Below, piece by piece: positions 4,680 through 58,689 of a DNA stretch of 64,000 nt. The stretch spans positions 94,094 through 158,093 of the forward strand of contig CAWIXR010000005.1 in assembly GCA_963840145.1 (NCBI GenBank), read 5' to 3'. A model generated the notes under the pieces. The model had not been told where the DNA came from. It was given only the letters and a program-made list of their open reading frames with translations, and made no database searches. The position numbers and the translations under genes are program-made. The DNA comes from an uncultured Chloroflexia bacterium. GTDB lineage: Bacteria; Chloroflexota; Limnocylindria; QHBO01. The first letter of the stretch is position 1. Every line of letters begins with the position of its first letter.

Positions 4680-4701
4680 GCTATCATCACCGTCCCATGA
4701 C
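4680..4701. promoter_or_regulatory. conserved 22-nt pre-start element GCTATCATCACCGTCCCATGAC
   Basis: Near-identical copy (21 of 22 nt) at 5446-5467. Both contain the start codon of an OFOR gene and a TATCAT -10-like hexamer 9 nt upstream of the ATG. Confidence 0.4.
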
Positions 4702-5002
4702 TGCCGAGCAGCCCGCGGCGTCGGGCCAGTCCGCCATCGGCTTCGGCTCCGGGATCAGCGACGATCACCGGGACGGCATCCGCTGGGTCGACTACACGAA
4801 CATCAGCTGGAACCCGGTCTTCTGCAAGCGCTGCGACATCTGCGTCGAGATCTGCCCGAAGGCGACGCTCGTCCTGCGCAACGATGCGATCATCGAGGAG
4901 GAGAACTGCATCCTCTGCGGCCTCTGTGAGCGCTACTGCCCGGACCTGGCCATCGAGATGATCCCGGAGGCGGTCACCGCCCACGCCGCAAAGGAGAAGT
5001 GA
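4697..5002 (+). CDS. 4Fe-4S dicluster ferredoxin, delta subunit of 2-oxoacid:ferredoxin oxidoreductase
   Basis: Two CxxCxxCxxxCP motifs. It lies immediately upstream of the OFOR alpha/beta/gamma genes. Confidence 0.8.
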   Translation: MTAEQPAASGQSAIGFGSGISDDHRDGIRWVDYTNISWNPVFCKRCDICVEICPKATLVLRNDAIIEEENCILCGLCERYCPDLAIEMIPEAVTAHAAKEK

Positions 5003-5439
5003 GCCGGCGCCTGATCGGCTACCCGACCGGCTGGACGCTGGCCGTTTTCGACGAGGCCGATGCGGCCGAGGCCGCCGGGGCCGAGCTCGCCGCATCCGGC
5101 ATCGCTGCCGACGACGTGATTCTGCTGGCGGGATCGGACGCCACCGAGCGGATGAGCCGGCTCGGTGCCTCGTCCGGCGTCAGCGCGCGGATGCGGCGCG
5201 CGATGCAGTTCATGACGATGGACCAGCTGCCCGACCTCCACGTCTACGAGCTTGCCCTGGAGGGCGGCCGCCCGGTGCTGGGCATCCGGATCGGCGACGG
5301 CGACCGGCGGCGCGCCGCCACCGAGGTGATCCGCCGCCACGGCGGGCACTTCGTGAACCGATTCGGCGCGTGGGCGACCGAGGAGATATCCCCGTGGCGT
5401 GGCGAGATGCCCAGGCTGCCGCAGCACATGCAGCGCTGA
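4999..5439 (+). CDS. hypothetical protein, YflT/general-stress-protein-like
   Basis: 146 aa. ATGA overlap with the ferredoxin stop. Weak resemblance to the YflT family. It is inserted between the OFOR delta and alpha genes. Confidence 0.45.
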   Translation: MSRRLIGYPTGWTLAVFDEADAAEAAGAELAASGIAADDVILLAGSDATERMSRLGASSGVSARMRRAMQFMTMDQLPDLHVYELALEGGRPVLGIRIGDGDRRRAATEVIRRHGGHFVNRFGAWATEEISPWRGEMPRLPQHMQR

Positions 5440-5462
5440 GCGGCCGCTATCATCGCCGTCCC

Positions 5463-6599
5463 ATGACCCGGAAGCTGACGCAGGGCAACGAGGCGGTCTT
5501 TCGCGGTGCGCTGGCCGCCGGCGCGAGCTACTACGCCGGCTACCCGATCAGCCCGTCCACCGAGATCCTCAACATCGCCTCGGGCCACGCTGCCGAGCAC
5601 CCCGAGTTCCGATTCCTCCAGGCGGAGGACGAGATCGCGTCGGCCAACGCCGTCATCGGCGCCTCGTTGGCGGGCGCGAAGTCGTTCACCGCGACCTCCG
5701 GCCCGGGCTTCAGCCTCATGCAGGAGGCGGTCGGCTACGCCCAGAAGGTCGGCGTGCCCTCGGTCTTCGTCAATGTCATGCGCGTCGGCCCGGCGACCGG
5801 GATGCCGACGATGCCCGGCCAGGGCGACATCATGCAGGTCAAGTGGGGCAGCACCGGCGACTACACCCCGCTCGCGTTCTACCCCAACGGCGTGGAAGAA
5901 GCGTTCCGCGTCACCGTCGACGCCTTCAACGCCGCCGAGGAGTCCCGCTCGCCGGTCGTCGTCCTGTCCGACACGTTCGTCGCGCACCTCAACGAGGTCG
6001 TCGACCTCGACGAGATCGCCGGCTCCGTCTCGGTCATCGACCGTTCGATGCCACCGCTCGGCGACTTCATCGATACGCCGCGCTTCTTCGCCGGCGTGCT
6101 GATGTACGAGCACGGGCCGAACGCGGGCGAGCCGGCCACGGCCGACGCGGACGAGTACCTGCGCCAGTTCTACGAGGCCAAGCACCGCCATCTCGAGGTC
6201 GCCGCGCGCTACGCGCAGTTCGAGCACGGATGGAACGTCGAGGCCGATGTCCTGGTCGTCTGCTACGGGATCGTCTCGCGTGTCGCGGCGCCGCTGCGCG
6301 ACGAGTTCGCCCTCTTCCGGCCGATCCGAATCTTCCCGATGCTCTCGGCCGAGCTGGCCGGCATTGCCGATCGGTACCGCGAGGTGGTCGTGGTGGAGGC
6401 GAACGACGGCCAGTACGCGGACCTCGTGGAGCTTGCGCTGCATCGGCCGGTCAAGCGCGTGCCGCTGCTCGGCGGCCGCATCTCGCTCGAGGCCGTGCGC
6501 GAGGGGATCGACCGCGTGCTGTCGGGTGGGCCATCGGAGCCTCCGATTCCGCCGCAGCCGGCGGAGCCCGGCCCGCGGGCGCCGCTGGGGGTGGGCTGA
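5463..6599 (+). CDS. 2-oxoacid:ferredoxin oxidoreductase alpha subunit (KorA/PorA-like)
   Basis: N-terminal GYPISPSTEI and a pyruvate-flavodoxin/ferredoxin oxidoreductase core. Confidence 0.85.
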   Translation: MTRKLTQGNEAVFRGALAAGASYYAGYPISPSTEILNIASGHAAEHPEFRFLQAEDEIASANAVIGASLAGAKSFTATSGPGFSLMQEAVGYAQKVGVPSVFVNVMRVGPATGMPTMPGQGDIMQVKWGSTGDYTPLAFYPNGVEEAFRVTVDAFNAAEESRSPVVVLSDTFVAHLNEVVDLDEIAGSVSVIDRSMPPLGDFIDTPRFFAGVLMYEHGPNAGEPATADADEYLRQFYEAKHRHLEVAARYAQFEHGWNVEADVLVVCYGIVSRVAAPLRDEFALFRPIRIFPMLSAELAGIADRYREVVVVEANDGQYADLVELALHRPVKRVPLLGGRISLEAVREGIDRVLSGGPSEPPIPPQPAEPGPRAPLGVG

Positions 6600-28109: not shown

Positions 28110-28591
28110 GGCCGTAGCGTAGCCGCCTCGGCGGCGACCAGTTTCGCCAGCAGCCGGCGCAGCGTCGCGACCTCCGCATCGGTCAAGGTGGCGGTGGCCG
28201 CGCGGTTGACGCCGTCGGCAAGCGGAACCAGCTGATCTCGAAGCGTCGAGCCGCGCTCGGTGAGCGTGATGCGGCTGGCCCGCCGGTCGTTCGGGTCCGG
28301 AGCGCGGGTCACGAGGCCGTCGCGCTCCATGCGGTCGATCGTGCGCACCATCGTCGGCTGCTCGATCGCCACACGCCGGGCGAGCTGCGCCTGGGTCAGG
28401 CCATCGCTGCTCCAGAGGTGCAGCAGGACCGCCCACTGACCGATACCGACGTCGAACGTCCGAAGCTCGTCGGCAAGCTGCGCGGCGAGTGCCCGCGCCG
28501 CCCGGTTGACGAGGTAGCCGAGGCTCTCCTCGATGACGAACGTCCGCGGGCCGGGTGGCTCGCCGGTCGCGGCCTCGACGCGCCAGGTCAT
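28106..28591 (-). CDS. MarR family transcriptional regulator
   Basis: wHTH with QWAVLLHL...LTQAQLA...DRRASRITLTERG. Confidence 0.8.
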   Translation of the reverse strand: MTWRVEAATGEPPGPRTFVIEESLGYLVNRAARALAAQLADELRTFDVGIGQWAVLLHLWSSDGLTQAQLARRVAIEQPTMVRTIDRMERDGLVTRAPDPNDRRASRITLTERGSTLRDQLVPLADGVNRAATATLTDAEVATLRRLLAKLVAAEAATLRP

Positions 28592-29013
28592 CGGGCTGGT
28601 CGCTCGGGCGCGTAGATGTACCCGTCGATGTCGGCCGCTCGGAGGCCGGCGCGCTGGACGGCGTTGAAGGCCGCGAGCGCCTCCTCGACGCCGATCGCCT
28701 CCGGAGCGGCAACGTCGTACTCGACGCCACGCCAGCGGATGAGCCCGCCGCCGGCGGCGACGAGGTTGCGGTACCAGTGCGCTTCGCTGCCGAAGGCCAG
28801 CGCGAGGACGAAGCCGTCCTCGGTCCGGCGCGCGGCGACCGGCGTCTCGAACGTCCTGCCCGAGTGGCGCCCGGTGTGGCGGACGACCGAGAAGATCGGG
28901 TTCCAGCGCTTTCCGGCGAGCGGAAGCATCATGCCGGCGGTGGCACGGGCGGCACGGAGGAAGAATCCGCCCATGCGCGGCTTGCGGGTCTGGGAGAGCG
29001 GTGCGGTGGTCAT
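28588..29013 (-). CDS. deazaflavin(F420)-dependent nitroreductase family protein (DUF385)
   Basis: PNPOx-like split barrel with an AHWYRNL motif. Confidence 0.7.
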   Translation of the reverse strand: MTTAPLSQTRKPRMGGFFLRAARATAGMMLPLAGKRWNPIFSVVRHTGRHSGRTFETPVAARRTEDGFVLALAFGSEAHWYRNLVAAGGGLIRWRGVEYDVAAPEAIGVEEALAAFNAVQRAGLRAADIDGYIYAPERPAR

Positions 29014-29201
29014 CGGTTCTGGATGGTCCTTAGCATGCTACGGAGTTCTCATAGAAGGATAGCATGCTAAGTATCGGTGTCAACCCTGCCGGCGGCTCGG
29101 ACCGTGGGTGCACATCGGCCGCGCGACGGGATCGGTCCGGGCAGCTCGGTTGAGCATCGGATCAACCGATCGGTGGATGGGCGACGCATAATCCGCGGCT
29201 G

Positions 29202-29603
29202 ATGGCAGTCCGTCGGGCGGCGCTGGCCGCCACGCTCCTCCTTGCGGCATGCACGACACCGACCGGCGTCGCGGTCGACGAGTGCAACACGACCTGGACC
29301 GGGCTCGATCCGCAGATCGTGCGCGGCGGCTCCGGCGACCGCGAGAGCGTCCCGATCGCCTGCATGCGGCGCATCGACGAGCGGCGGATCAGCATCGGCT
29401 TCCAGATGCCGCCAGGCCCCGAGTGCTTCGAGCTGGCGGCCGTCGAGCTCGAGGAGTCGGCCGATGCCGCGGCGGTGACGTTGGTCGTGTCGCCGATCGG
29501 GGACGTCGGCGGCACCTGCCCGGCTGAGCCGGTGCGCACGGTGACGGAGGTCGACCTGCAGTCTCCGGTCGGCGATCGCACCCTGCTCGACGGAAGCCGG
29601 TAG
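29202..29603 (+). CDS. hypothetical lipoprotein
   Basis: Signal peptide with an LLAAC lipobox. Confidence 0.5.
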   Translation: MAVRRAALAATLLLAACTTPTGVAVDECNTTWTGLDPQIVRGGSGDRESVPIACMRRIDERRISIGFQMPPGPECFELAAVELEESADAAAVTLVVSPIGDVGGTCPAEPVRTVTEVDLQSPVGDRTLLDGSR

Positions 29604-29612
29604 CGCCCACGC

Positions 29613-29629
29613 GTATATACGTATATACG
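29613..29629. promoter_or_regulatory. GTATATACGTATATAC element, copy 3 of 3
   Basis: Tandem copy of the self-complementary 8-mer GTATATAC. It sits 26 nt before the aldH ATG. Confidence 0.4.
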
Positions 29630-29654
29630 CGGGCAACGACGCTACCATGCACCC

Positions 29655-31133
29655 ATGACCGACGCCCCCACGAAGCTCCTCATCGGCGGTGAGCTGCGCG
29701 ACGCCGCCGCCGGCGCCACCTTCGCGACGTTCGATCCGGCCCACGGCGGTGAGCTGGCGACCGTCGCCCAAGCCGGGACCGATGACGTCGACGCGGCCGT
29801 CACCGCGGCCCGCGGCGCGCTCGAGGGCGCGTGGGCGAAGACCAGCCCAGCCAAGCGGGCGCGCGCGCTGAACAGGCTGGCGCAGCTGCTCGACGAGCAG
29901 ACCGATGATCTCGCCGAGCTCGAGAGCCGCAACAACGGCAAGGCGAAGTGGCAATGCGCGGCCGAGATCAAGGTGGCGGTGGCCACGCTCGAGCTGTTCG
30001 CCGGCACCGCCCAGCACCTCTACGGCCGCTCCCACGTCGTCAACCCTGCGGTCGTCTCGTACACGCTCCGTGAGCCGGTCGGCGTGGTCGGCGCGATCAT
30101 CCCCTGGAACTACCCGCTGATGATGGCCGCCTGGAAGGTGGCGCCGGCGCTGGCGACCGGCAACACCCTGATCCTGAAGCCCGCATCGGCCACGCCGTTG
30201 ACCGCCATCCGCCTCGGCGAGCTGGCGCTCGAGGCCGGCATCCCGCCCGGCGTGCTCAACGTCATCCCCGGGCCCGGCGCCGAGGTCGGGGAGGCGATCG
30301 CCGCCCATCCGGGCATCGACAAGGTCGCCTTCACCGGCGAGACCGATACCGGCCGCCGCATCGCGGCGGCCGCCGCGGCGACACTCAAGAGAGTGTCGCT
30401 GGAGCTTGGCGGCAAGAGCCCGAACATCGTCTTCGCCGATGCGGACCTCGAGGCGGCCGTCCTCGGCTCGCTGTGGGCGATCTTCTATTCGGCCGGGCAG
30501 TCGTGCGAGGCGCGCTCGCGGATCCTCGTGCAGGACGAGGCCTACGACGCGTTCGCATCGGCCTTTGCGGAGAAGGCTCGGTCCCTTGCCGTCGGCGATC
30601 CCCTCGCCGACGAGACGAAGGTGGGCTCGCTGATCAGCCGCGCGCATGCCGATCGGGTGCGCGAGTTCATCGAGATCGGCGTGGCGGATGGCGGCGAGCT
30701 CCTGGCCGGTGGCCCGCGCGTCGAGCTGAACGGAAACCTCGACGCCGATGCGTTCGTCGCGCCGACGGTCATCGGCGGCGTCGGCAACGACGCGCGGATC
30801 GCGCAGGAGGAGGTCTTCGGCCCGGTCGTGACCCTCACCCGCTTCGGCGACGAGGCCGAGGCGGTGGCCTTCGCGAACGGCGTGCGCTACGGGTTGGCGG
30901 CGACGGTCTGGACCCAGGATGGCTCGCGCGGCCACCGCGTCGCGCAGCGGATCCGGTCGGGCGCGGTCGGCATCAACACCCCGTTCATCGCGTTTCCCGG
31001 TGTCCCGTTCGGCGGCTTCAAGGAGTCCGGCTACGGGCGCGAGCAGTCGATCGAGGCGCTCGACCTGTACACCGAGACGAAGGCGATTCTCCAGAACACC
31101 TCGCCCAAGCCGGTCAACCCGCTCGGCGTCTAG
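29655..31133 (+). CDS. NAD(P)-dependent aldehyde dehydrogenase
   Basis: Catalytic Cys (GQSCEA), ELGGKSP motif and GTGR motif. Confidence 0.9.
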   Translation: MTDAPTKLLIGGELRDAAAGATFATFDPAHGGELATVAQAGTDDVDAAVTAARGALEGAWAKTSPAKRARALNRLAQLLDEQTDDLAELESRNNGKAKWQCAAEIKVAVATLELFAGTAQHLYGRSHVVNPAVVSYTLREPVGVVGAIIPWNYPLMMAAWKVAPALATGNTLILKPASATPLTAIRLGELALEAGIPPGVLNVIPGPGAEVGEAIAAHPGIDKVAFTGETDTGRRIAAAAAATLKRVSLELGGKSPNIVFADADLEAAVLGSLWAIFYSAGQSCEARSRILVQDEAYDAFASAFAEKARSLAVGDPLADETKVGSLISRAHADRVREFIEIGVADGGELLAGGPRVELNGNLDADAFVAPTVIGGVGNDARIAQEEVFGPVVTLTRFGDEAEAVAFANGVRYGLAATVWTQDGSRGHRVAQRIRSGAVGINTPFIAFPGVPFGGFKESGYGREQSIEALDLYTETKAILQNTSPKPVNPLGV

Positions 31134-49100: not shown

Positions 49101-51641
49101 ATGGGTGTTTTGCAGCGGACGGAGGCGGCCGAGCGCTCGAGGCTGCTGCGCGTCCGCGGCTACGACGTGGAGCTCGACCTGACGCGGGGCGAGGAGCTGT
49201 TCGGCTCGACTACGCGGATCGCGTTCGACTGCACCGAGCCGGGGGCGGCGACGTTCCTCGACCTTGCCGCGTCGAACGTCGAATCGGTCGTGCTCAACGG
49301 TCAACCGGTCGAGGCGGAGGCCGTCGATGGTGAGCGAATCGGCCTGGCGGCGCTGGAAGCGACCAACGAGCTCGTCGTCAGCGCGGACTGCTCCTACTCG
49401 CGGATGGGGGAGGGGCTGCATCGGTTCGTGGATCCGGCCGACGAAGAGGTCTACGTCTGGGCCGAGAGCGTCGTCAACAACGCCGGGCGCATCTTCGCCT
49501 GCTTCGACCAGCCCGACCTGAAGGCGCCGTTTCGGCTGCGAGTCCGCGCGCCGGCGCACTGGACCGTCCTCTCGAACGGCGCCGGCGAGAGCGACGGCAA
49601 CGGTTCGTGGACCTTCGAGGCCACGCCGCCGCTCTCGACGTACCTGATGGTGCTCGTCGGGGGCGCCTTCCACTCGGCGTACCAGACCCACGGCGCGATC
49701 CCGTTGGGCCTCCACGTCCGCCGTTCGCTTGGCGAGCACCTCGACTCGGATGAGCTCTTCGAGCAGACCCGCCAAGCCTTCGACTTCTACCACCGCGTCT
49801 TCGCCGTTCCGTACCCGTTCGGCAAGTACGACCAGGCCTTCCTGCCCGAGTACGAGATGGGCGCGATGGAGAACCCCGGCTGCGTGAAGTTCAGCGACAA
49901 GTTCATCTTCCGCTCGCGCGTGACCGATGACGAGCGCGCCGAACGCGCGATCACGATCGCGCACGAGATGGCGCACATGTGGTTCGGCGACCTCGTGACG
50001 ATGCGCTGGTGGGACGACCTGTGGCTGAACGAGTCGTTCGCCGAGTACATCGGCACGCTGGCGACGGACCAGTCGATGCGCTTCAGCTCTAGGTGGGCGT
50101 GGTTCTGCGCGGCGATGAAGGCCTGGGGCTACCGACAGGACGAGCTGCCCTCGACCCATCCGATCGCGGCCGATGCGCCCGACACCGAGGCGGCGCTCCT
50201 CAACCTCGACGGGATCTCGTATGCCAAGGGCGCCGGGGTCCTGAAGCAGCTCGTCGCGTGGGTCGGCTTCGACGCCTTTGTCACCGGGCTGCGGGACTAC
50301 TTCGACCGCCATGCGTACGGGAGCACGACGCTGGCCGATCTGCTCGCGGCCCTCGAGCCCGCCAGTGGCCGGGACCTCGGCGCGTGGAGCAAGGAGTGGC
50401 TCGAGACGGCCGGCGTGAACGTGTTGCGCTCGGAGATCCACGAGGACGGCGACGCGTATCGGTCGGTGGCGGTGCTCCAGGAGGCGCCGGCCGACCATCC
50501 CACGCTGCGCTCGCACCGGATCGCGATCGGCCTGTACGACCAGGACGGTGACCGTCTCGTGCGTCGCGATCGGATCGAGGTCGATGTCGTCGGCGTCCGG
50601 ACCGAGGTGCCGGCGCTCGCCGGCGTCCGCGTGCCGGACCTGCTGCTCCTCAACGACGACGACCTGACCTGGGCGAAGATCCGGCTCGACCCGCGCTCGC
50701 TGGCAACGGTCCGAGCCGGCGGGCTGTCCGGCCTCGACGACGCGCTGCCGCGCGCGCTGATCTGGGCCTCGACGTGGGACACGGCCCGCGACGCCGAGCT
50801 GCCGGCGGGAGACTACGTCTCGTTCGTGATCGGCTCGGTCGGCGCGGAGCGCGACGTCTCGCTCGTCGAGGACATTCTTGGGCGGGCCCGGTTGGCGATC
50901 GACCGATACGGCCTGCCGGACGAGCGAGACGCCCGACTCGCCGCGCTCGCGGCGCGCAGCGCCGAGCTCCTGGCCGCGGCGGAGGCGGGGAGCGACCTCC
51001 AGGTCATCTTCGCGCGCGTCTACGCTCGCTCGGCGGCCGCCGGTGACGACGCGGCCCGCATCGCCGGCTGGCTGGATGGACGCGAGGTTCCCGTCGGGCT
51101 GACCCTCGACCCCGAGCTGCGCTGGCTGATCGTCAAGCGGCTGGCCGTCATCGGTGCGGCGGATGATGCGGCCATCGCCGCCGAGCTCGAGCGCGATGCG
51201 ACCTCCCACGGCGCAGAATCGGCGACCGCGGCGCGGGTCTCACGACCGACCGCGGAGGCCAAAGCCGCGGCATGGGAGTCGGTCGCCGGCTCGGACTCCC
51301 TCTCGGTCGCGATCCTCCGCGCGACGACCGAGAACTTCTGGCACACCGAGCAGCTCGAGCTGTGCGCGCCGTACGTCGAGCCGTACCTCGCCGCGCTGCC
51401 GGGGATCTGGCGAACGCGGCCGGCAGAGGCGGCGTGGAACATCACGCGCGCGATGTTCCCGGCGCTGCTCGTCTCGCGGAACACCGTCGAGCTCGTCAGC
51501 CGCGCGCTCGACGCGGATCTCGACGACGCGCTGCGACGGGTGCTCGTCGAGGGCCGCGACGACCTCGAACGGGCGCTGCGGGCTCGCGCCGCGGACCGCG
51601 CCGATCAGCCGAGCCAGGCGATCGTCACCAGCTCGGCATAG
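49101..51641 (+). CDS. pepN: aminopeptidase N (M1 family)
   Basis: HEMAHMWFGDLVT...WLNESFAEY (HExxH + E) zinc site and GAMEN motif. Confidence 0.9.
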   Translation: MGVLQRTEAAERSRLLRVRGYDVELDLTRGEELFGSTTRIAFDCTEPGAATFLDLAASNVESVVLNGQPVEAEAVDGERIGLAALEATNELVVSADCSYSRMGEGLHRFVDPADEEVYVWAESVVNNAGRIFACFDQPDLKAPFRLRVRAPAHWTVLSNGAGESDGNGSWTFEATPPLSTYLMVLVGGAFHSAYQTHGAIPLGLHVRRSLGEHLDSDELFEQTRQAFDFYHRVFAVPYPFGKYDQAFLPEYEMGAMENPGCVKFSDKFIFRSRVTDDERAERAITIAHEMAHMWFGDLVTMRWWDDLWLNESFAEYIGTLATDQSMRFSSRWAWFCAAMKAWGYRQDELPSTHPIAADAPDTEAALLNLDGISYAKGAGVLKQLVAWVGFDAFVTGLRDYFDRHAYGSTTLADLLAALEPASGRDLGAWSKEWLETAGVNVLRSEIHEDGDAYRSVAVLQEAPADHPTLRSHRIAIGLYDQDGDRLVRRDRIEVDVVGVRTEVPALAGVRVPDLLLLNDDDLTWAKIRLDPRSLATVRAGGLSGLDDALPRALIWASTWDTARDAELPAGDYVSFVIGSVGAERDVSLVEDILGRARLAIDRYGLPDERDARLAALAARSAELLAAAEAGSDLQVIFARVYARSAAAGDDAARIAGWLDGREVPVGLTLDPELRWLIVKRLAVIGAADDAAIAAELERDATSHGAESATAARVSRPTAEAKAAAWESVAGSDSLSVAILRATTENFWHTEQLELCAPYVEPYLAALPGIWRTRPAEAAWNITRAMFPALLVSRNTVELVSRALDADLDDALRRVLVEGRDDLERALRARAADRADQPSQAIVTSSA

Positions 51642-52384
51642 AGCGCCTCGACGTCCACTGACACGCCGCGCCGGCCGAACCAGTCGCCGACGTTGGCGAC
51701 ATCCCGGTGCAGCAGCTCGAAGGCATCGGGGTTGGTCGTGAACTCCACGGCCTGCGGCAGGTCGATCACCACCAGCCGCCCCTTCCACCACAGCAGGTTG
51801 TAGGCGGACAGGTCGGCGTGGGCGAGGCCGGCCGCGGTCAGCGCACGCAGGTTGCCGGCCAGCTGCGCCCAGGCCGATGCGAGCTCATCGGCCTTCAAGC
51901 GTGCCTGCGCCAGCTTCGGTGCCGCCTCCGACTCGTCGCCGATGAACTCCATCAGGAAGCCGTCCTCGCTCTGCTCGACCGGGAACGGGACCGATACGCC
52001 CGCCTCCCAGGCACGACGGACGACCGCCCACTCCTGCATCGGCCACAGCTGGGCGGCCAGCTCGAGGCCGTGGCGGCTCTTGTTGCCGGCCGCGAGCGCG
52101 CGACGGTCGCGCGCGCCGACGTTCCAGCCCTCGCGGTACATGGCGTGGCGCCGGAACGACGACGAGTTCGAGAAGCCCTCGTCCCGGAGCTGGTCCTTGC
52201 CGGGATGGCGGATGCGGTATCGCTTGTGGGCGAGCAGGCGCGGACCGGACTCGGCGAAGCGACGCTCCACCAGGAAGATCTCGGCCTCCTTGCCGGACTT
52301 GAGGGTGCCGCGCGGGATGTCGGTGTAGGCCTCGCCATCGGGCCAGGCGAACGACGGCCCGCGCAGCGGATGCGTGACGGACAC
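51605..52384 (-). CDS. RIO1-like atypical protein kinase
   Basis: HADLSAYNLLWWKGRLVVIDLPQAV catalytic/metal-binding loop typical of RIO kinases. Confidence 0.6.
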   Translation of the reverse strand: MSVTHPLRGPSFAWPDGEAYTDIPRGTLKSGKEAEIFLVERRFAESGPRLLAHKRYRIRHPGKDQLRDEGFSNSSSFRRHAMYREGWNVGARDRRALAAGNKSRHGLELAAQLWPMQEWAVVRRAWEAGVSVPFPVEQSEDGFLMEFIGDESEAAPKLAQARLKADELASAWAQLAGNLRALTAAGLAHADLSAYNLLWWKGRLVVIDLPQAVEFTTNPDAFELLHRDVANVGDWFGRRGVSVDVEALYAELVTIAWLG

Positions 52385-52615
52385 GAGAAAACGCTCCCGT
52401 TTCGGGGTGGGACATGGGTGAATTCGTCCCGACCGCCTGGGAGCGCCGGTGCCTCAGGTCAGACCGATGAGGTCAGGCGTGCTCCGCACGGCCGGGAGGA
52501 ACGACAAGGGCGATCGTCACTGCCTTGGTCCTCCTGGTGAGATGGTTCGATGGTCGGGCGGCATGATGCCCCACCGTTACGGTTGGCGCAAGGTGCCCGG
52601 CCCTAGACTGCCACG

Positions 52616-53377
52616 GTGACCTTCGACGTGGCCGCCGATTCCTACGACCGCTTCATGGGCCGATACTCGCGCCTCCTGTCGCCGCAGATGGCCGATCTCG
52701 CTGGAATCGCAGGCGGCCAGCGCGCGCTCGACGTCGGCTGCGGCCCCGGCGCGCTGACCGAGGAGCTGGTGCGCCGTCTTGGCGCCGATGCCGTGACGGC
52801 GGTCGACCCATCCGGGCCGTTCGTCGAGGCTGCGCGTGCCCGTCACCCAGGCGTCACGGTCCTCGCGGCGAGCGCCGAGGCGCTGCCCTTCGACGATGAC
52901 GCCTTCGACGTGGCGATCGCGCAGCTCGTCGTCCACTTCATGGCCGATCCGGTCGCCGGCCTTGCCGAGATGCGTCGCGTCTCACGCCCCGGCGGCGTGG
53001 TGGCGGCCTGCGTCTGGGATCTCGCCGGCGGGCGGGCGCCGCTCAGCGACTTCTGGCGCGTTGCGCGGGAGCTCGACTCCGACGTCGCGGACGAGTCGTT
53101 GATGGCCGGCGCGCGCGAAGGCCACCTCGCCGAGCTCTTCGAGTCGGCCGGTTTCCGCGACGTCCAGCCTGCGGCTCTATCGGTCAGCCACGAGCATGCC
53201 GGATTCGACGACTGGTGGGAGCCGTACACGCTGGGCGTCGGCCCGGCCGGCAGCTACGTGGCTCGACTGGACGACGGCCATCGGGCCGCGCTTCGGGAGA
53301 GGGCGCGCGAGATGATGCCGAGCGGCCCCTTCACGCTCACCGCCTGGGCCTGGGCGGCCCGCGCCGTCAGTCCCTAG
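52616..53377 (+). CDS. class I SAM-dependent methyltransferase
   Basis: LDVGCGPG motif I. Confidence 0.8.
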   Translation: MTFDVAADSYDRFMGRYSRLLSPQMADLAGIAGGQRALDVGCGPGALTEELVRRLGADAVTAVDPSGPFVEAARARHPGVTVLAASAEALPFDDDAFDVAIAQLVVHFMADPVAGLAEMRRVSRPGGVVAACVWDLAGGRAPLSDFWRVARELDSDVADESLMAGAREGHLAELFESAGFRDVQPAALSVSHEHAGFDDWWEPYTLGVGPAGSYVARLDDGHRAALRERAREMMPSGPFTLTAWAWAARAVSP

Positions 53378-53440
53378 ACAGCGCCGCCTCGCGCGCTTCG
53401 TGCGCATCAGTGGCCGATCTATCGGCCGCGCGGTCGGTGC

Positions 53441-53460
53441 TGATAACAAAAGTGTTATCA
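53441..53460. promoter_or_regulatory. perfect inverted repeat TGATAAC-N6-GTTATCA immediately upstream of the XRE gene
   Basis: Ends 8 nt before the ATG at 53469. AT-rich island. A second palindrome GGCCGAT-CT-ATCGGCC lies at 53413-53428. Confidence 0.55.
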
Positions 53461-53468
53461 TCCGACCG

Positions 53469-53798
53469 ATGAATGCCGCACGAGCCCTTCGATACGCCCG
53501 CCGACACGCCGGCCTGACCCAGCGAGCCCTGGCCGCCAGGGCCGGCGTGCCCCAGCCGGCGATTGCTCGCATCGAGGCGGGTGCCGTTTCGCCACGGGTG
53601 GACACGCTCTCGCACTTGATCGCCGCGACCGGGAGCACGCTCGAGCTGGCTCCGAGGGTCGGCGCTGGCGTCGACCGCACGATGCTCGCGGCCACCCTGG
53701 CGATGACGCCCGAGGAACGCATCGAGGCCGCCGGCCGAGCCGGGACGAGCCTCGCGGCCTTCCGGGACGAGGTCCGACGTGGCCGGACGGGCGCCTGA
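53469..53798 (+). CDS. XRE-family HTH transcriptional regulator (putative antitoxin of an NTase module)
   Basis: GLTQRALAARAGVPQPAIARIE HTH. The alternative start at 53400 would place the operator inside the CDS. Confidence 0.7.
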   Translation: MNAARALRYARRHAGLTQRALAARAGVPQPAIARIEAGAVSPRVDTLSHLIAATGSTLELAPRVGAGVDRTMLAATLAMTPEERIEAAGRAGTSLAAFRDEVRRGRTGA

Positions 53799-54279
53799 CT
53801 TCCGGCCCGCGGAGGTCATCGGCCTCCTCGGCCGTCATGAGGTCCGCTACGTCCTGATCGGCGGCCTCGCCGCGATCACGCATGGGGCCGGCGTCGTCAC
53901 GCAGGACGTCGACGTCTGCCACGCACGCGATCCTGAGAATCTGGAGCGCCTGGCCGATGCGCTGCGCGAGGTCCACGCCGACCTCCGCGGTGCCGAGCCG
54001 GGCCTGCCGTTTCGGCTCGACGCCAAGGCGCTGGAGCGCGGGGACTCGTTCACCTTCACGACGGACGTCGGCTGGGTCGACATCCTGGGCACGCCCTCCG
54101 GCGGCGTGGGCTACGAAGAGCTGGCTCGGACGGCCGATGCGTACACGCTCTTCGGTCACCGAGTCCTGGTCGCATCGCTCGAGGACCTCATTCGGATGAA
54201 GCGAGCGGCCGGTCGCCCCAAGGACCTGCTCGCGGTGGAGGAGCTTGGCGCCCTCCGGGACGAGATCGATCGGTCCTAG
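53779..54279 (+). CDS. minimal nucleotidyltransferase (Pol-beta superfamily, AbiEii/MNT-like)
   Basis: LIGGLAAITHGAGVVTQDVDV (G[GS]...DxD) and C-terminal LEDLIRMKRAAGRPKDLLAV. 20-nt overlap with the XRE gene. Confidence 0.6.
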   Translation: MAGRAPDFRPAEVIGLLGRHEVRYVLIGGLAAITHGAGVVTQDVDVCHARDPENLERLADALREVHADLRGAEPGLPFRLDAKALERGDSFTFTTDVGWVDILGTPSGGVGYEELARTADAYTLFGHRVLVASLEDLIRMKRAAGRPKDLLAVEELGALRDEIDRS

Positions 54280-54659
54280 AAGGCCCGGGGCACGATTGTT
54301 GCGGATGCGTTGGCTCCGTCACATCAGGTGGGCAGGTGGACCGTCGTCGATTCGAGTTGCAGGTCGAGGCAGTGCTCGTCGTGTATCGCGCGCACCGTCG
54401 AACCGGGCGCCCGGAGTCGATGGGGCCTCTGCGCCAACGCAGCCACGAGATCCTGGATGGCCTCGCCTCGGAAACCGACGGCGACCCGAAACGAGCACAT
54501 CTGCTTGTGGACGCGCGGCAGGAGCTGGATGCACCGGTCGGTGACGGCCAGGACTAGTTCCGAGCGGCCTCGCCCAATAACCGTTCGACGGACTCCGTCA
54601 GCTCAGCGATCGCGAACGGTGTACGAGCAGGCATAGACCCGCGCCGATAGCATCCGGAC

Positions 54660-55073
54660 GTGGATCGTCCCGTTGCCCGCGGTTTCGTCGCCGTCTACGG
54701 CACGCTGCGCCGCGGCCAGCGCAACCACGGGCTGCTCCGCGGGGCGCCGCTGGTCGGCAGCGGCCACGTGGACGGCGTGCTGCACGAGGTGCCGCGGGCG
54801 CCGTATCGGCCGTATGCCTATCCGGCGCTCGTGGAAGGCGACGGTCGCGTGGTCGTCGAGGTCTATCCGCTCGCGGACGAGGCGATGCTGGCGACGCTCG
54901 ACGCGCTCGAGCTGTACGACCCGGCCGACGAGGCCGGATCGCAGTACGTGCGGCGGCTCGCGCGGATGTACGACCAACCGGTTGACCATGCCTACGTCTA
55001 CTTCTACAACGGCCCGCCGGAGGAGCTCGGCGACGTCATCGAGGGCGGTGACTGGGTCGCGCGAGGTAAGTAG
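54660..55073 (+). CDS. gamma-glutamylcyclotransferase (AIG2/GGCT-like) family protein
   Basis: [15 protein letters not shown]-terminal motif. Confidence 0.7.
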
Positions 55074-57964: not shown

Positions 57965-57982
57965 TATATCGATAGTGATATA
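57965..57982. promoter_or_regulatory. 18-bp element TATATCGATAGTGATATA (upstream copy), candidate operator
   Basis: Ends 8 nt before the ATG at 57991. Contains the palindrome TATCGATA. Identical copy at 58729-58746. Confidence 0.45.
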
Positions 57983-57990
57983 TTCGGTGA

Positions 57991-58689
57991 ATGGACGCGA
58001 CGGCGATCGGACCGACGGTCAGGTGGGCGCGCAAACGCGCCGGTATGACCCAGCACGAGCTCGCGCAGGCGACGGGCCTGCCCCAGCCGAGCATCGCGCG
58101 AATCGAGAGCGGAGCGGTGGTCCCGCGGACGGCGACGCTGATCACCATCCTGCACGCCGCCGGGCACCGGCTCGCCATTGAACCGATCGGTTCAGTGGTG
58201 GATCGCGAGGCCATCCGCAGACAGTTGGCCCTGACTGTGCCGCGACGCACGCAACTTGCACTCGGGCGCGCTGCGAAGGACCCGATGACCAGTCCCGTTC
58301 GGATCCTGCGTCGGCTGCGCCGCTTCAGCGTGCCGTTCGTGCTGGTCGGCGACCTGGCGGAAGTCGCGCACGGCGCGCTCGGGAAGGTCGGCGGTCTCAT
58401 CGAGGTCTGCGTCGCGACGACTGATATCGCCCGCGAGCGGCTCGAGCTCGCCAGGAAAGACCTTGGCGAGTCAGCCGATCCCAGCCGCCTGCACGTCCTG
58501 ACCAGCACCGTCGCCGGCGACGACTATGACGTGCTCGTTCGCAATGCCGTCCGCTTGCGGGTGGACGCGGGATTGCTCGTACCGGTCGCAGCCGTCCAGG
58601 ACCTGATCCGCGTCCGACGTGCGCGCCGCGCACCCGACGACGAGGCGGCAGCGGCTACCCTCGCCGCCATCCTCGACGAGTCGGCCTAG
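57991..58689 (+). CDS. fused XRE-HTH / nucleotidyltransferase-like protein (paralogue of the 53469-54279 module, NTase motif degenerate)
   Basis: N-terminal GMTQHELAQATGLPQPSIARIE. C-terminal FVLVGDLAEVAHGA...QDLIRVRRARRAPDD is collinear with the split NTase but lacks the DxD pair. Confidence 0.6.
   Translation: MDATAIGPTVRWARKRAGMTQHELAQATGLPQPSIARIESGAVVPRTATLITILHAAGHRLAIEPIGSVVDREAIRRQLALTVPRRTQLALGRAAKDPMTSPVRILRRLRRFSVPFVLVGDLAEVAHGALGKVGGLIEVCVATTDIARERLELARKDLGESADPSRLHVLTSTVAGDDYDVLVRNAVRLRVDAGLLVPVAAVQDLIRVRRARRAPDDEAAAATLAAILDESA

Follow-up and report, generated by a model that had tools for sequence, protein, structure and literature searches.

Nucleotidyltransferase (NTase) toxins of the MenT and AbiEii kind have been studied as translation blockers in Mycobacterium tuberculosis and as effectors of abortive infection, and the antitoxins that control them are known to be diverse. 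One of them, MenT1, is an experimentally validated tRNA-NTase toxin, the toxicity of which is abolished by the substitutions D41A or K137A and also depends on D152 (PMC10435456). Residue T39 of MenT1 is the site of an auto-phosphorylation that is induced by the antitoxin and that a single helix can trigger (PMC11375011). Here we describe a two-gene module from a 64,000-nucleotide stretch of DNA of an uncultured Chloroflexia bacterium (contig CAWIXR010000005.1; the whole stretch is hereafter the window), in which a gene for an XRE-family regulator is followed and overlapped by a gene for a minimal NTase of the DNA polymerase beta (Pol-beta) fold. The module is, on balance and with modest confidence, an autoregulated pair of NTase toxin and XRE antitoxin of the MenAT/AbiE kind; it is most likely an uncharacterized branch of a known toxin-antitoxin (TA) family and not a new kind of system.

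AbiEi-AbiEii (a type IV TA and abortive-infection system), MenAT3 and MenAT4 share the NTase toxin superfamily with the module. MenT3 and MenT4 exceed MenT1 in size, and the partners described in the MenT and AbiE literature are of the COG5340, COG4861 and MenA1 types, with no XRE protein among them (PMC10435456, PMC11375011). As two accounts describe it (PMC8406773, PMC11375011), the AbiE antitoxin joins a DNA-binding domain to a C-terminal antitoxicity region and its operon is negatively autoregulated, an organization that the module appears to share. Whereas AbiEi, MenA3 and MenA4 carry a winged helix-turn-helix (HTH) of COG5340 and measure ~200 aa, the regulator in the window is a 109-aa protein with an XRE/Cro-type HTH. 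The original prediction had taken this partner as the feature that sets the module apart. This holds for the partner classes reported for MenAT and AbiE, but such a partner is not entirely without precedent, since 'Xre-MNT' already exists as a label for a TA domain pair in a study of Streptococcus suis, where one weakly supported pair bears it (PMC8406773). By its description that pair, Xress-MNTss, likewise places a small NTase behind an XRE repressor, the autorepression of which was established by electrophoretic mobility shift and reporter assays; however, MNTss was described as similar to kanamycin NTases and was toxic only when sent to the periplasm (PMC8406773).

The type VII MNT-HEPN systems, too, are two-gene modules with a minimal Pol-beta NTase, but in them the NTase serves as antitoxin to a HEPN RNase toxin, whereas the module in the window has no HEPN gene, gave no NTP_transf_2 match and has an XRE partner. 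The Geobacillus and Makarova 2009 papers treat MNT-HEPN only and hold no XRE-NTase pair, nor does the 2026 RelS-RelI paper, and we found no literature tying NetFlax to an NTase with an HTH protein. The HigA and HipB antitoxins of type II systems are the most similar in their HTH. As in these systems, the XRE gene lies upstream of its partner gene and its operator is a palindrome over the promoter, with an N6 spacer; in contrast, the partner is an NTase and not a kinase or RNase, and the NTase-associated extension of the regulator is specific to the window family. The HipB operator, TATCC-N8-GGATA, is similar in geometry to the palindrome in the window. Judged by sequence, the module resembles MenAT1 most closely in its toxin, and HipB and HigA in the DNA-binding half of its antitoxin.

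Organization and linkage of the xre-NTase operon

The genes of the module and the signals that surround them are the following, in order of position.

~53440-53499: A+T-rich dip, local GC 0.52-0.57 against ~0.72 in the surroundings
53441-53460 (unstranded): operator palindrome TGATAAC-N6-GTTATCA, a perfect inverted repeat and putative XRE-dimer site
53453-53461, plus strand: extended -10 element TGt-TATCAT, inside the right arm of the operator and followed by 7 nt and then A53469
53469-53798, plus strand: XRE-family gene, ATG start, 109 aa; HTH_3 at residues ~4-60, extension at ~61-100, then a basic tail
53649-53768, plus strand: part of the XRE gene that codes for residues 61-100, the C-terminal extension, delimited by conservation and fusions
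53769-53772, plus strand: Shine-Dalgarno-like GAGG, 6 nt 5' of the NTase GTG and within the 3' end of the XRE gene
53779-54279, plus strand: NTase gene, GTG start, 166 aa; minimal Pol-beta fold, Pfam DUF6036

The two genes overlap by 20 nt, and an independent gene caller run on the public contig reproduced both of them together with the overlap, in agreement with the gene lengths and overlap that had been predicted. A longer XRE open reading frame (ORF) from GTG 53400 (132 aa) was rejected: homologues and the independent call start at the ATG, and its 5' portion is not conserved as protein and contains the operator. Long antisense ORFs (e.g., 53458-54159, minus strand, 233 aa) are regarded as artefacts of high GC content; they have no family matches and were left uncalled by the independent caller.

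The xre and NTase genes overlap in a single operon, the linkage of which is obligate across two phyla. In 84/84 related loci an XRE homologue directly precedes the NTase gene on the same strand, so the pair does recur elsewhere, which had been proposed as a check on the module. A gene overlap is present in nearly all loci; in the closest group it measures 17-20 nt, and in the others it is mostly 4 nt (ATGA/GTGA). Searches for NTase relatives recovered 6,023 proteins at E<=1e-3 from a database clustered at 90% identity and 6,677 clusters at 50% identity with the same threshold, 1,981 of the latter at E<=1e-10. A scan of one genome per species returned 312 relatives, the best 80 of which come nearly all from metagenome-assembled genomes (MAGs) of Chloroflexota (Limnocylindria and 'Chloroflexia' bins) and Actinomycetota. 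Since the locus search used the closer alignment A2, its 80 loci are biased to relatives of at least 52% identity. Among cultured organisms, Mycolicibacterium rufum (JCM 16372) carries the pair on a MOBF plasmid and Miltoncostaea oceani in a plasmid record; it is annotated in both as 'helix-turn-helix transcriptional regulator' and 'hypothetical protein'. No third conserved gene accompanies the module in the neighborhoods compared, and a single MAG can hold two copies, as with two loci of the same assembly (L009 and L052). The architecture is that of type II TA systems with XRE antitoxins: a small operon with the antitoxin first, an overlap, a promoter palindrome, conserved linkage and a partly variable position.

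The nucleotidyltransferase and its relationship to MenT1

The NTase passes the gathering cut-off of Pfam DUF6036 (PF19502), 23.6 bits, by a narrow margin (24.9 bits), and the same model is matched by 65 of its 84 relatives (best E=4e-11). The other Pfam families recovered among these 84 proteins were DUF2204 (44 matches), AbiEii (14) and the ANT(2'') family Aminoglyc_resit (14), the last two at E<=0.01; one fused relative, P0172, scores 32 bits with the AbiEii model, the cut-off of which is 22.5. NTP_transf_2 (the MNT family) and HEPN gave 0 matches in both window proteins and the 84 relatives, and no NCBIfam model matched the NTase.

The AlphaFold model of the NTase, built with 84 homologues, shows a Pol-beta fold (predicted local distance difference test, pLDDT, 96.7; predicted template modeling score, pTM, 0.91). 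Foldseek returned TM1012 (PDB 2ewr) as the best PDB match (E=2e-6) and MenT1 (8an5_B) at E=5e-6, with a query TM-score (TMq) of 0.67 and 24% identity. Lower in the list were LnuA (E=6e-4, TMq 0.59) and ANT(2'')-Ia (TMq 0.5-0.54), the Foldseek probability being 1.0 for all four. TM1012 adds no functional information, and neither do DUF6036 and DUF2204, because the former is titled only 'putative nucleotidyltransferase' in the PDB and the two families are described as of unknown function. When the family profile (alignment A4) was compared with the PDB, MenT1 (8an4_A) was matched with E=4.3e-6 in an alignment that spans residues 8-157 of the 166, and ANT(2'') and LnuA were not among the matches. 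A search of the PDB with the single NTase sequence gave only noise; the MenT1 match came with the profile.

Motifs I and II of the NTase (I27-G28-G29 ... T41-Q-D43-V-D45) lie in the segment LIGGLAAITHGAGVVTQDVDV at residues 26-46, and this G[GS]...DxD motif is intact, as predicted, and highly conserved in the 84 relatives. In alignment A4 of these 84 sequences, G28, G98 and D149 are invariant, and G29, T41, D43, D45, D101, K141 and R146 are conserved in at least 90%. The third aspartate, D101 (WVDIL), is located in strand 98-103 of the model and aligns with vvDLL of MenT1. Motif IV retains K141, R146, K148 and D149, and the AbiEii-like C-terminal motif of the original prediction, KRAAGRPKDL at residues 141-150, is present, but motif IV lacks its second aspartate, the position of MenT1 D152 being occupied by alanine. 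Residues T39, D41 and K137 of MenT1 correspond to T41, D43 and K141. The Pol-beta active-site signature is intact, and MenT1 is the nearest characterized relative.

The likeness to MenAT1 (Rv0078B-Rv0078A of M. tuberculosis) extends to several levels. The NTase measures 166 aa against 184-196 residues in the solved MenT1 chains and shares with MenT1 the fold, a detectable sequence homology, the T-x-D-x-D motif, the third aspartate and the K...R.xD helix; the partner gene is upstream in the operon in both systems, and the partner element is short and helical, as modeled for the window family. MenAT1 differs in that MenA1 is a 68-aa protein with no DNA-binding domain, whereas the partner here is an XRE-HTH repressor with an extension, and also in its D152, which is replaced by alanine in the window NTase, and in the fused forms that are common in the window family. 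With respect to the wider AbiEii/MenT family (DUF1814, PF08843), the NTase has the Pol-beta fold, motifs I-II, motif III and significant similarity to a validated member, but it does not have the last aspartate of motif IV (which leaves this motif incomplete in comparison with AbiEii, MenT3 and MenT4), falls in DUF6036 below the threshold of the AbiEii family model, and has no antitoxin of a described class (COG5340, COG4861, MenA1-like). A close housekeeping homologue had been named as an outcome that would speak against the module; the closest characterized homologue is instead the toxin MenT1, of the AbiEii/DUF1814 superfamily. This homology, together with the linkage of the two genes, supports the original description of the module as an XRE regulator paired with a minimal Pol-beta NTase, similar to TA or abortive-infection (Abi) systems.

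A putative operator that coincides with a probable leaderless promoter

The promoter region is defined by a conserved palindrome that lies over a -10-like element just 5' of a start codon without a Shine-Dalgarno sequence. In the window, the perfect 20-bp repeat at 53441-53460 ends 8 nt before the XRE ATG in an AT-rich island (GC 0.52-0.57), exactly as first reported, and can be read as 7-N6-7 or as 8-N4-8 (TGATAACA/TGTTATCA). It is unique in the 64-kb window even when up to 3 mismatches are allowed, with matches in 0/100 shuffles. At the equivalent position, 63/81 related loci have at least 6/7 complementary arm pairs and 28/81 have perfect arms, as opposed to 14.6% and 0.9%, respectively, of control 70-mers. 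The consensus across loci is TGATAnC-N6-GnTATCA. Its variable base and the partner of this base (positions 6/15) are complementary in 48/63 sites, against ~31% expected from base frequencies.

The variable half-site also tracks the recognition helix of the linked regulator. GATAGC occurs with PQ[SA]T[VI][AG]RIE, GATAAC with PQPAIARIE, GATACC with ..AKIE, and GATGTC or GATATC with ..ISRIE, a correlation that is inflated by the shared ancestry of the loci. This helix tracking and the covariation of the arms provide good indirect evidence, from sequence comparison, that an XRE dimer reads the site at 53441-53460.

A TANNNT element ends 6-8 nt before the XRE start in 66/80 loci (0.4% at random positions), and 43 of these 66 elements carry the TGn extension (0.06% at random), while a Shine-Dalgarno-like motif precedes the XRE start in 1/80. 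Since the -10 element of the window ends 7 nt before the A of ATG 53469, we infer that the xre-NTase mRNA is leaderless, its 5' end being the A of this codon, and that repression works by covering the -10 element. A scan for promoters of the Escherichia coli type found no -35/-10 pair at the locus, a null result that we do not read as absence of a promoter given the strong signal of a -10-only, leaderless start.

In a subgroup of loci (L024, L026, L028, L030, L041, L063 and L064) the palindrome TGATAGC-N6-GCTATCA lies ~20 nt further 5', and a separate TGnTACACT/TATGCT -10-like element is found 6-7 nt before the start codon, so that the operator is beside and not over the -10 element. A relaxed operator search of the 64 kb gave only two 1-mismatch sites, a number that 3/100 shuffles reached. 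One such match led to two copies of a 10-bp palindrome, TAGCATGCTA, spaced 30 bp apart at 29030-29071. They are placed in the short gap between ORFs 28588-29013 and 29067-30935, which lie in opposite orientations (both are minus-strand candidates), and probably serve an unrelated regulator as its operator.

The XRE protein and its C-terminal extension

The XRE protein matches Pfam HTH_3 (E=4e-12) and also HTH_31. Its best NCBIfam match is the couple_hipB/Y4mF antitoxin model (1.4e-10), below the cut-off of that model. A profile of 28 XRE orthologues recovered HigA (6af3_B, 6.6e-13), HipB and HigA2 from the PDB along residues 7-64 only, and all PDB matches of this profile were chains with an XRE-type HTH. 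The remainder of the protein holds the conserved motif PRxGxGVDRTLIRxxLxLSPxxR in an extension at residues ~61-100, in which R70 and R84 are invariant and R63, G65, D69, L77 and P81 are conserved in at least 90% of sequences. For the extension, the profile of the XRE protein found no similar chain in the PDB, MenA1 included.

The extension motif reappears directly N-terminal of the NTase in fusion proteins that have no HTH. A hidden Markov model of XRE residues 60-100 matched 9/12 such HTH-less N-termini (E 2e-11 to 8e-5) and 0 reversed decoys. Because the HTH-less fusions retain it, the segment that accompanies the NTase throughout is the extension rather than the HTH. This refines the pairing as originally drawn, in that the part of the XRE protein linked to the NTase is, by sequence comparison, the C-terminal extension. 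In the model of the fused homologue P0125 (pLDDT 94.6, pTM 0.82), the extension is predicted as two helices, 71-77 and 82-99 (pLDDT 92-95), and a linker of lower confidence (pLDDT 76) is found exactly where the window genes are split. The extension is therefore a candidate for the element of the XRE protein that binds or neutralizes the NTase.

Proposed mode of action

In the toxin-antitoxin reading that we favor, transcription from TGtTATCAT would start at the A of ATG 53469 and produce a leaderless mRNA. An XRE dimer bound to TGATAAC-N6-GTTATCA would silence its own operon, and would do so because the right half-site is at the same time the -10 element. Translation of the NTase is probably coupled to that of the XRE protein through the 20-nt overlap and an internal GAGG, the latter being inside the 3' end of the XRE gene. 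Free NTase would add nucleotides to the 3' end of RNA and arrest translation; by analogy with MenT1, tRNA acceptor ends would be the likeliest target. The helical extension of the XRE protein would hold the NTase inactive, either by blocking the active site or by auto-phosphorylation of T41, as MenA1 acts on T39 of MenT1. Each of these steps, namely leaderless transcription, autorepression, nucleotidylation of RNA (probably at tRNA 3' ends) and neutralization by the extension, is deduced from conserved signals, alignments and homology. The module could serve in the stabilization of plasmids or loci, in stress response, or in abortive defence against phages.

Fusions, inheritance and competing explanations

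Several observations weigh against a toxin-antitoxin pair. The first concerns family assignment. The window NTase does not match Pfam AbiEii (PF08843) at E<=1, and its match to the AbiEii model of PADLOC is weak (E=0.018). AbiEii and ANT(2'') are matched equally often by the relatives (14/84 each), and Ala152, which aligns with MenT1 D152, is in a column that is unconserved in the family. For DUF6036 we found no literature. The second concerns fusions. An N-terminal extension is present on ~29/150 of the best representative clusters. Among 10 longer hits that were scanned, 9 are HTH_3-NTase fusions, all of which keep GG...TxDxD and K...R.KD, and ~11 proteins without an HTH carry G[VI]D[LR][TS]L..L.L[ST]P.ER directly before the NTase. 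One of these, P0270 (L087 2355-3008), stands alone between mlaE and the gene for the mla ABC ATPase with no adjoining regulator gene. An 'antitoxin' that is tethered in this way fits the classical model of a labile antitoxin poorly. The third concerns inheritance. Flanks are shared with another locus in 26/45 cases, forming vertically inherited, syntenic groups (they are unique in the other 19/45), and a search of the phage collection found no homologue. It is because of the fusions, the solitary extension-NTases, the loss of D152, the marginal family assignment and the vertical inheritance that explanations based on regulation, small molecules and Abi are kept alive.

The fusions would also be accommodated if HTH, extension and NTase are basically one protein, a one-component regulator that many lineages keep fused and that is split in its linker here. 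Its job would be transcriptional control, and the NTase would act as a sensor or modifier that tunes the binding of the HTH to DNA, for instance when a nucleotide or another ligand binds to it, or through nucleotidylylation of either the NTase or the XRE protein. We consider this unlikely, if still deserving of attention. The frequency of fusions with intact catalytic motifs is in line with it, as is the vertical inheritance of many syntenic loci, and the pTM of 0.82 in the fused model suggests a fixed arrangement of domains, with the gene split falling exactly in the pLDDT-76 linker. Conserved paralogous fusions of XRE and pseudo-NTase would in addition show that the fold can serve without catalysis. 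However, the only operator that the searches of the 64 kb found is that of the module itself and no regulon is visible, and the pattern is therefore that of a self-contained module. In the split form the catalytic residues are strongly conserved, the nearest characterized relative is a toxin, and the extension-NTase fusions devoid of HTH cannot act as transcription factors.

A defence role like that of AbiE is a sub-case of the toxin-antitoxin reading, in which a phage cue would free the NTase (in trans, or in cis in the fusions) and translation would stop. The shared superfamily with AbiEii speaks for it, and the fused forms would fit a single chain released by a trigger, as in defence proteins that are fused toxin-antitoxins. 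A gene for a CAP12/PCTIR TIR-domain protein 1.2 kb upstream in locus L004 and the TA-rich neighborhoods of L001, L004 and L091 point in the same direction. Set against this, no PADLOC model matched convincingly, the contexts are mostly ordinary metabolic genes and not defence islands, many loci are syntenic and vertically inherited, and no phage-borne copies or hints of counter-defence were found in the phage collection. We hold the defence role to be rather improbable.

We know of no resistance NTase whose partner is obligate, is coupled to it in translation and carries an extension that occurs fused to the enzyme as well. Inactivation of a small molecule in the manner of ANT(2'')-Ia and LnuA, with an XRE protein that merely represses, is an alternative raised for small NTase modules by Makarova et al. 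2009 and is compatible with the similar size and the Foldseek matches of these enzymes and with the 14/84 relatives that touch Aminoglyc_resit, but it is very unlikely here, where the NTase has no Aminoglyc_resit match and less structural similarity to these enzymes than to MenT1, the profile finds MenT1 and neither of them in the PDB, the KxxxxRxKD helix is AbiEii-like, and inducer-type regulation is not evident.

Natural variants and a co-resident paralogue

Two kinds of single chain (cis forms) were distinguished, extension-NTase and HTH-extension-NTase, in addition to the trans form of an XRE-extension protein with a separate NTase. The extension-NTases without HTH are P0270, P0156, P0161, P0163, P0165, P0169, P0206, P0235, P0246, P0181 and P0124. 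The tenth of the longer hits scanned, P0220, is a fusion of NTase and enoyl-CoA hydratase.

A fused paralogue of the module is encoded in the window itself (57991-58689, plus strand, 232 aa). Its N-terminus shares 48% identity with the XRE protein, and its C-terminus 30% with the NTase (E=9e-9). The paralogue is probably catalytically dead, because a hydrophobic residue takes the place of D43 and arginine that of K141, and the central insert is deleted. Losses of this type are conserved in at least 120 clusters, and this family co-occurs with the split pair in several MAGs. A palindrome upstream of the gene, TATATC-N6-GATATA (57965-57982), overlaps TGa-TATATT 6 nt from the ATG, in the same leaderless design. 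In L089 and L090 the paralogue is immediately followed by a gene for a BipA/TypA-like GTPase; in the window such a gene is also downstream, on the far side of a cyclase gene of opposite orientation.

A broader and quite speculative extension of the toxin-antitoxin reading, to which we give little credence, would make G[VI]D[RL][TS]L[IL]R..L.L[ST]P..R (~35-40 aa) a previously unrecognized, portable element of NTase control that acts in cis or in trans. It may force auto-phosphorylation of the threonine beside DxD, as MenA1 does; the family might then record the conversion between a single-chain NTase that inhibits itself and a split TA pair, and the dead paralogue at 57991-58689 might represent a derived regulator, or a decoy, in cross-talk with the active pair.

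Neighborhood of the module

Within the window the module is flanked by a methyltransferase gene and a GGACT gene, with no HEPN gene as neighbor. The features adjoining it and the TA genes near related loci are listed below.

Ending at 53377, plus strand: class I methyltransferase gene, neighbor 5' of the module
53412-53427 (unstranded): G+C-rich palindrome GGCCGAT-CT-ATCGGCC, 35 nt past the methyltransferase stop codon
L091 3238-4980; L001 1015-1662; L004 586-1109 and 9489-10213: nearby TA genes

The G+C-rich palindrome is the second palindrome of the original prediction, which had placed it 1 nt away at 53413-28. It was not found conserved as sequence, L001 and L004 carrying different palindromes at a similar position, and a scan of the locus found no T-run terminator; it could be a terminator-like hairpin of the upstream gene or an accessory site. 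No tRNA genes and no Rfam families were found in the window, and thus there is no hint of an integration site. A 73-aa ORF just 3' of the NTase (54336-54557, plus strand) was called on the public contig and matches no Pfam family. Since it is not downstream of the module in L001-L004, it is considered to be outside the module.

The methyltransferase gene, which is 5' of the module in the window, is 3' of it in L001 and L016. The order RIO1 kinase ... methyltransferase ... GGACT is common to the window (51605-55073) and L001 (1703-8906), where L001 has the additional genes GerE-Kelch, DUF2461 and a cyclase. The module follows the methyltransferase gene in the window and precedes it in L001, which points to a local rearrangement in its surroundings. 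In L004, the XRE frame lacks the usual stop and continues for 285 aa on an alternative frame over the NTase gene (4691-5548), and the gene caller reported no XRE gene; either a frameshift from sequencing or a genuine loss of the stop could account for this. The TIR-domain gene of this locus is ~1.2 kb upstream. Other TA genes (PemK/MazF, MazE-PIN, and VapB-like with PIN) lie at a distance of a few kb from the module or from its fused paralogue in several MAGs, and these genomes appear to be rich in TA modules.

Significance

The window family adds to the MenT/AbiEii NTase toxins a large branch of mostly uncultured soil Chloroflexota and Actinomycetota, the members of which current annotation pipelines label 'hypothetical protein'. 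What it adds to the known systems are a leaderless design in which operator and putative promoter are one, a candidate portable extension motif, and a co-resident, probably dead, fused paralogue. Natural split, fused and catalytically dead versions stand side by side in this family, and an operator that would double as the -10 element of a leaderless promoter is open to direct test. The short and conserved motif of the partner could be used to probe how general antitoxin-induced auto-phosphorylation is.

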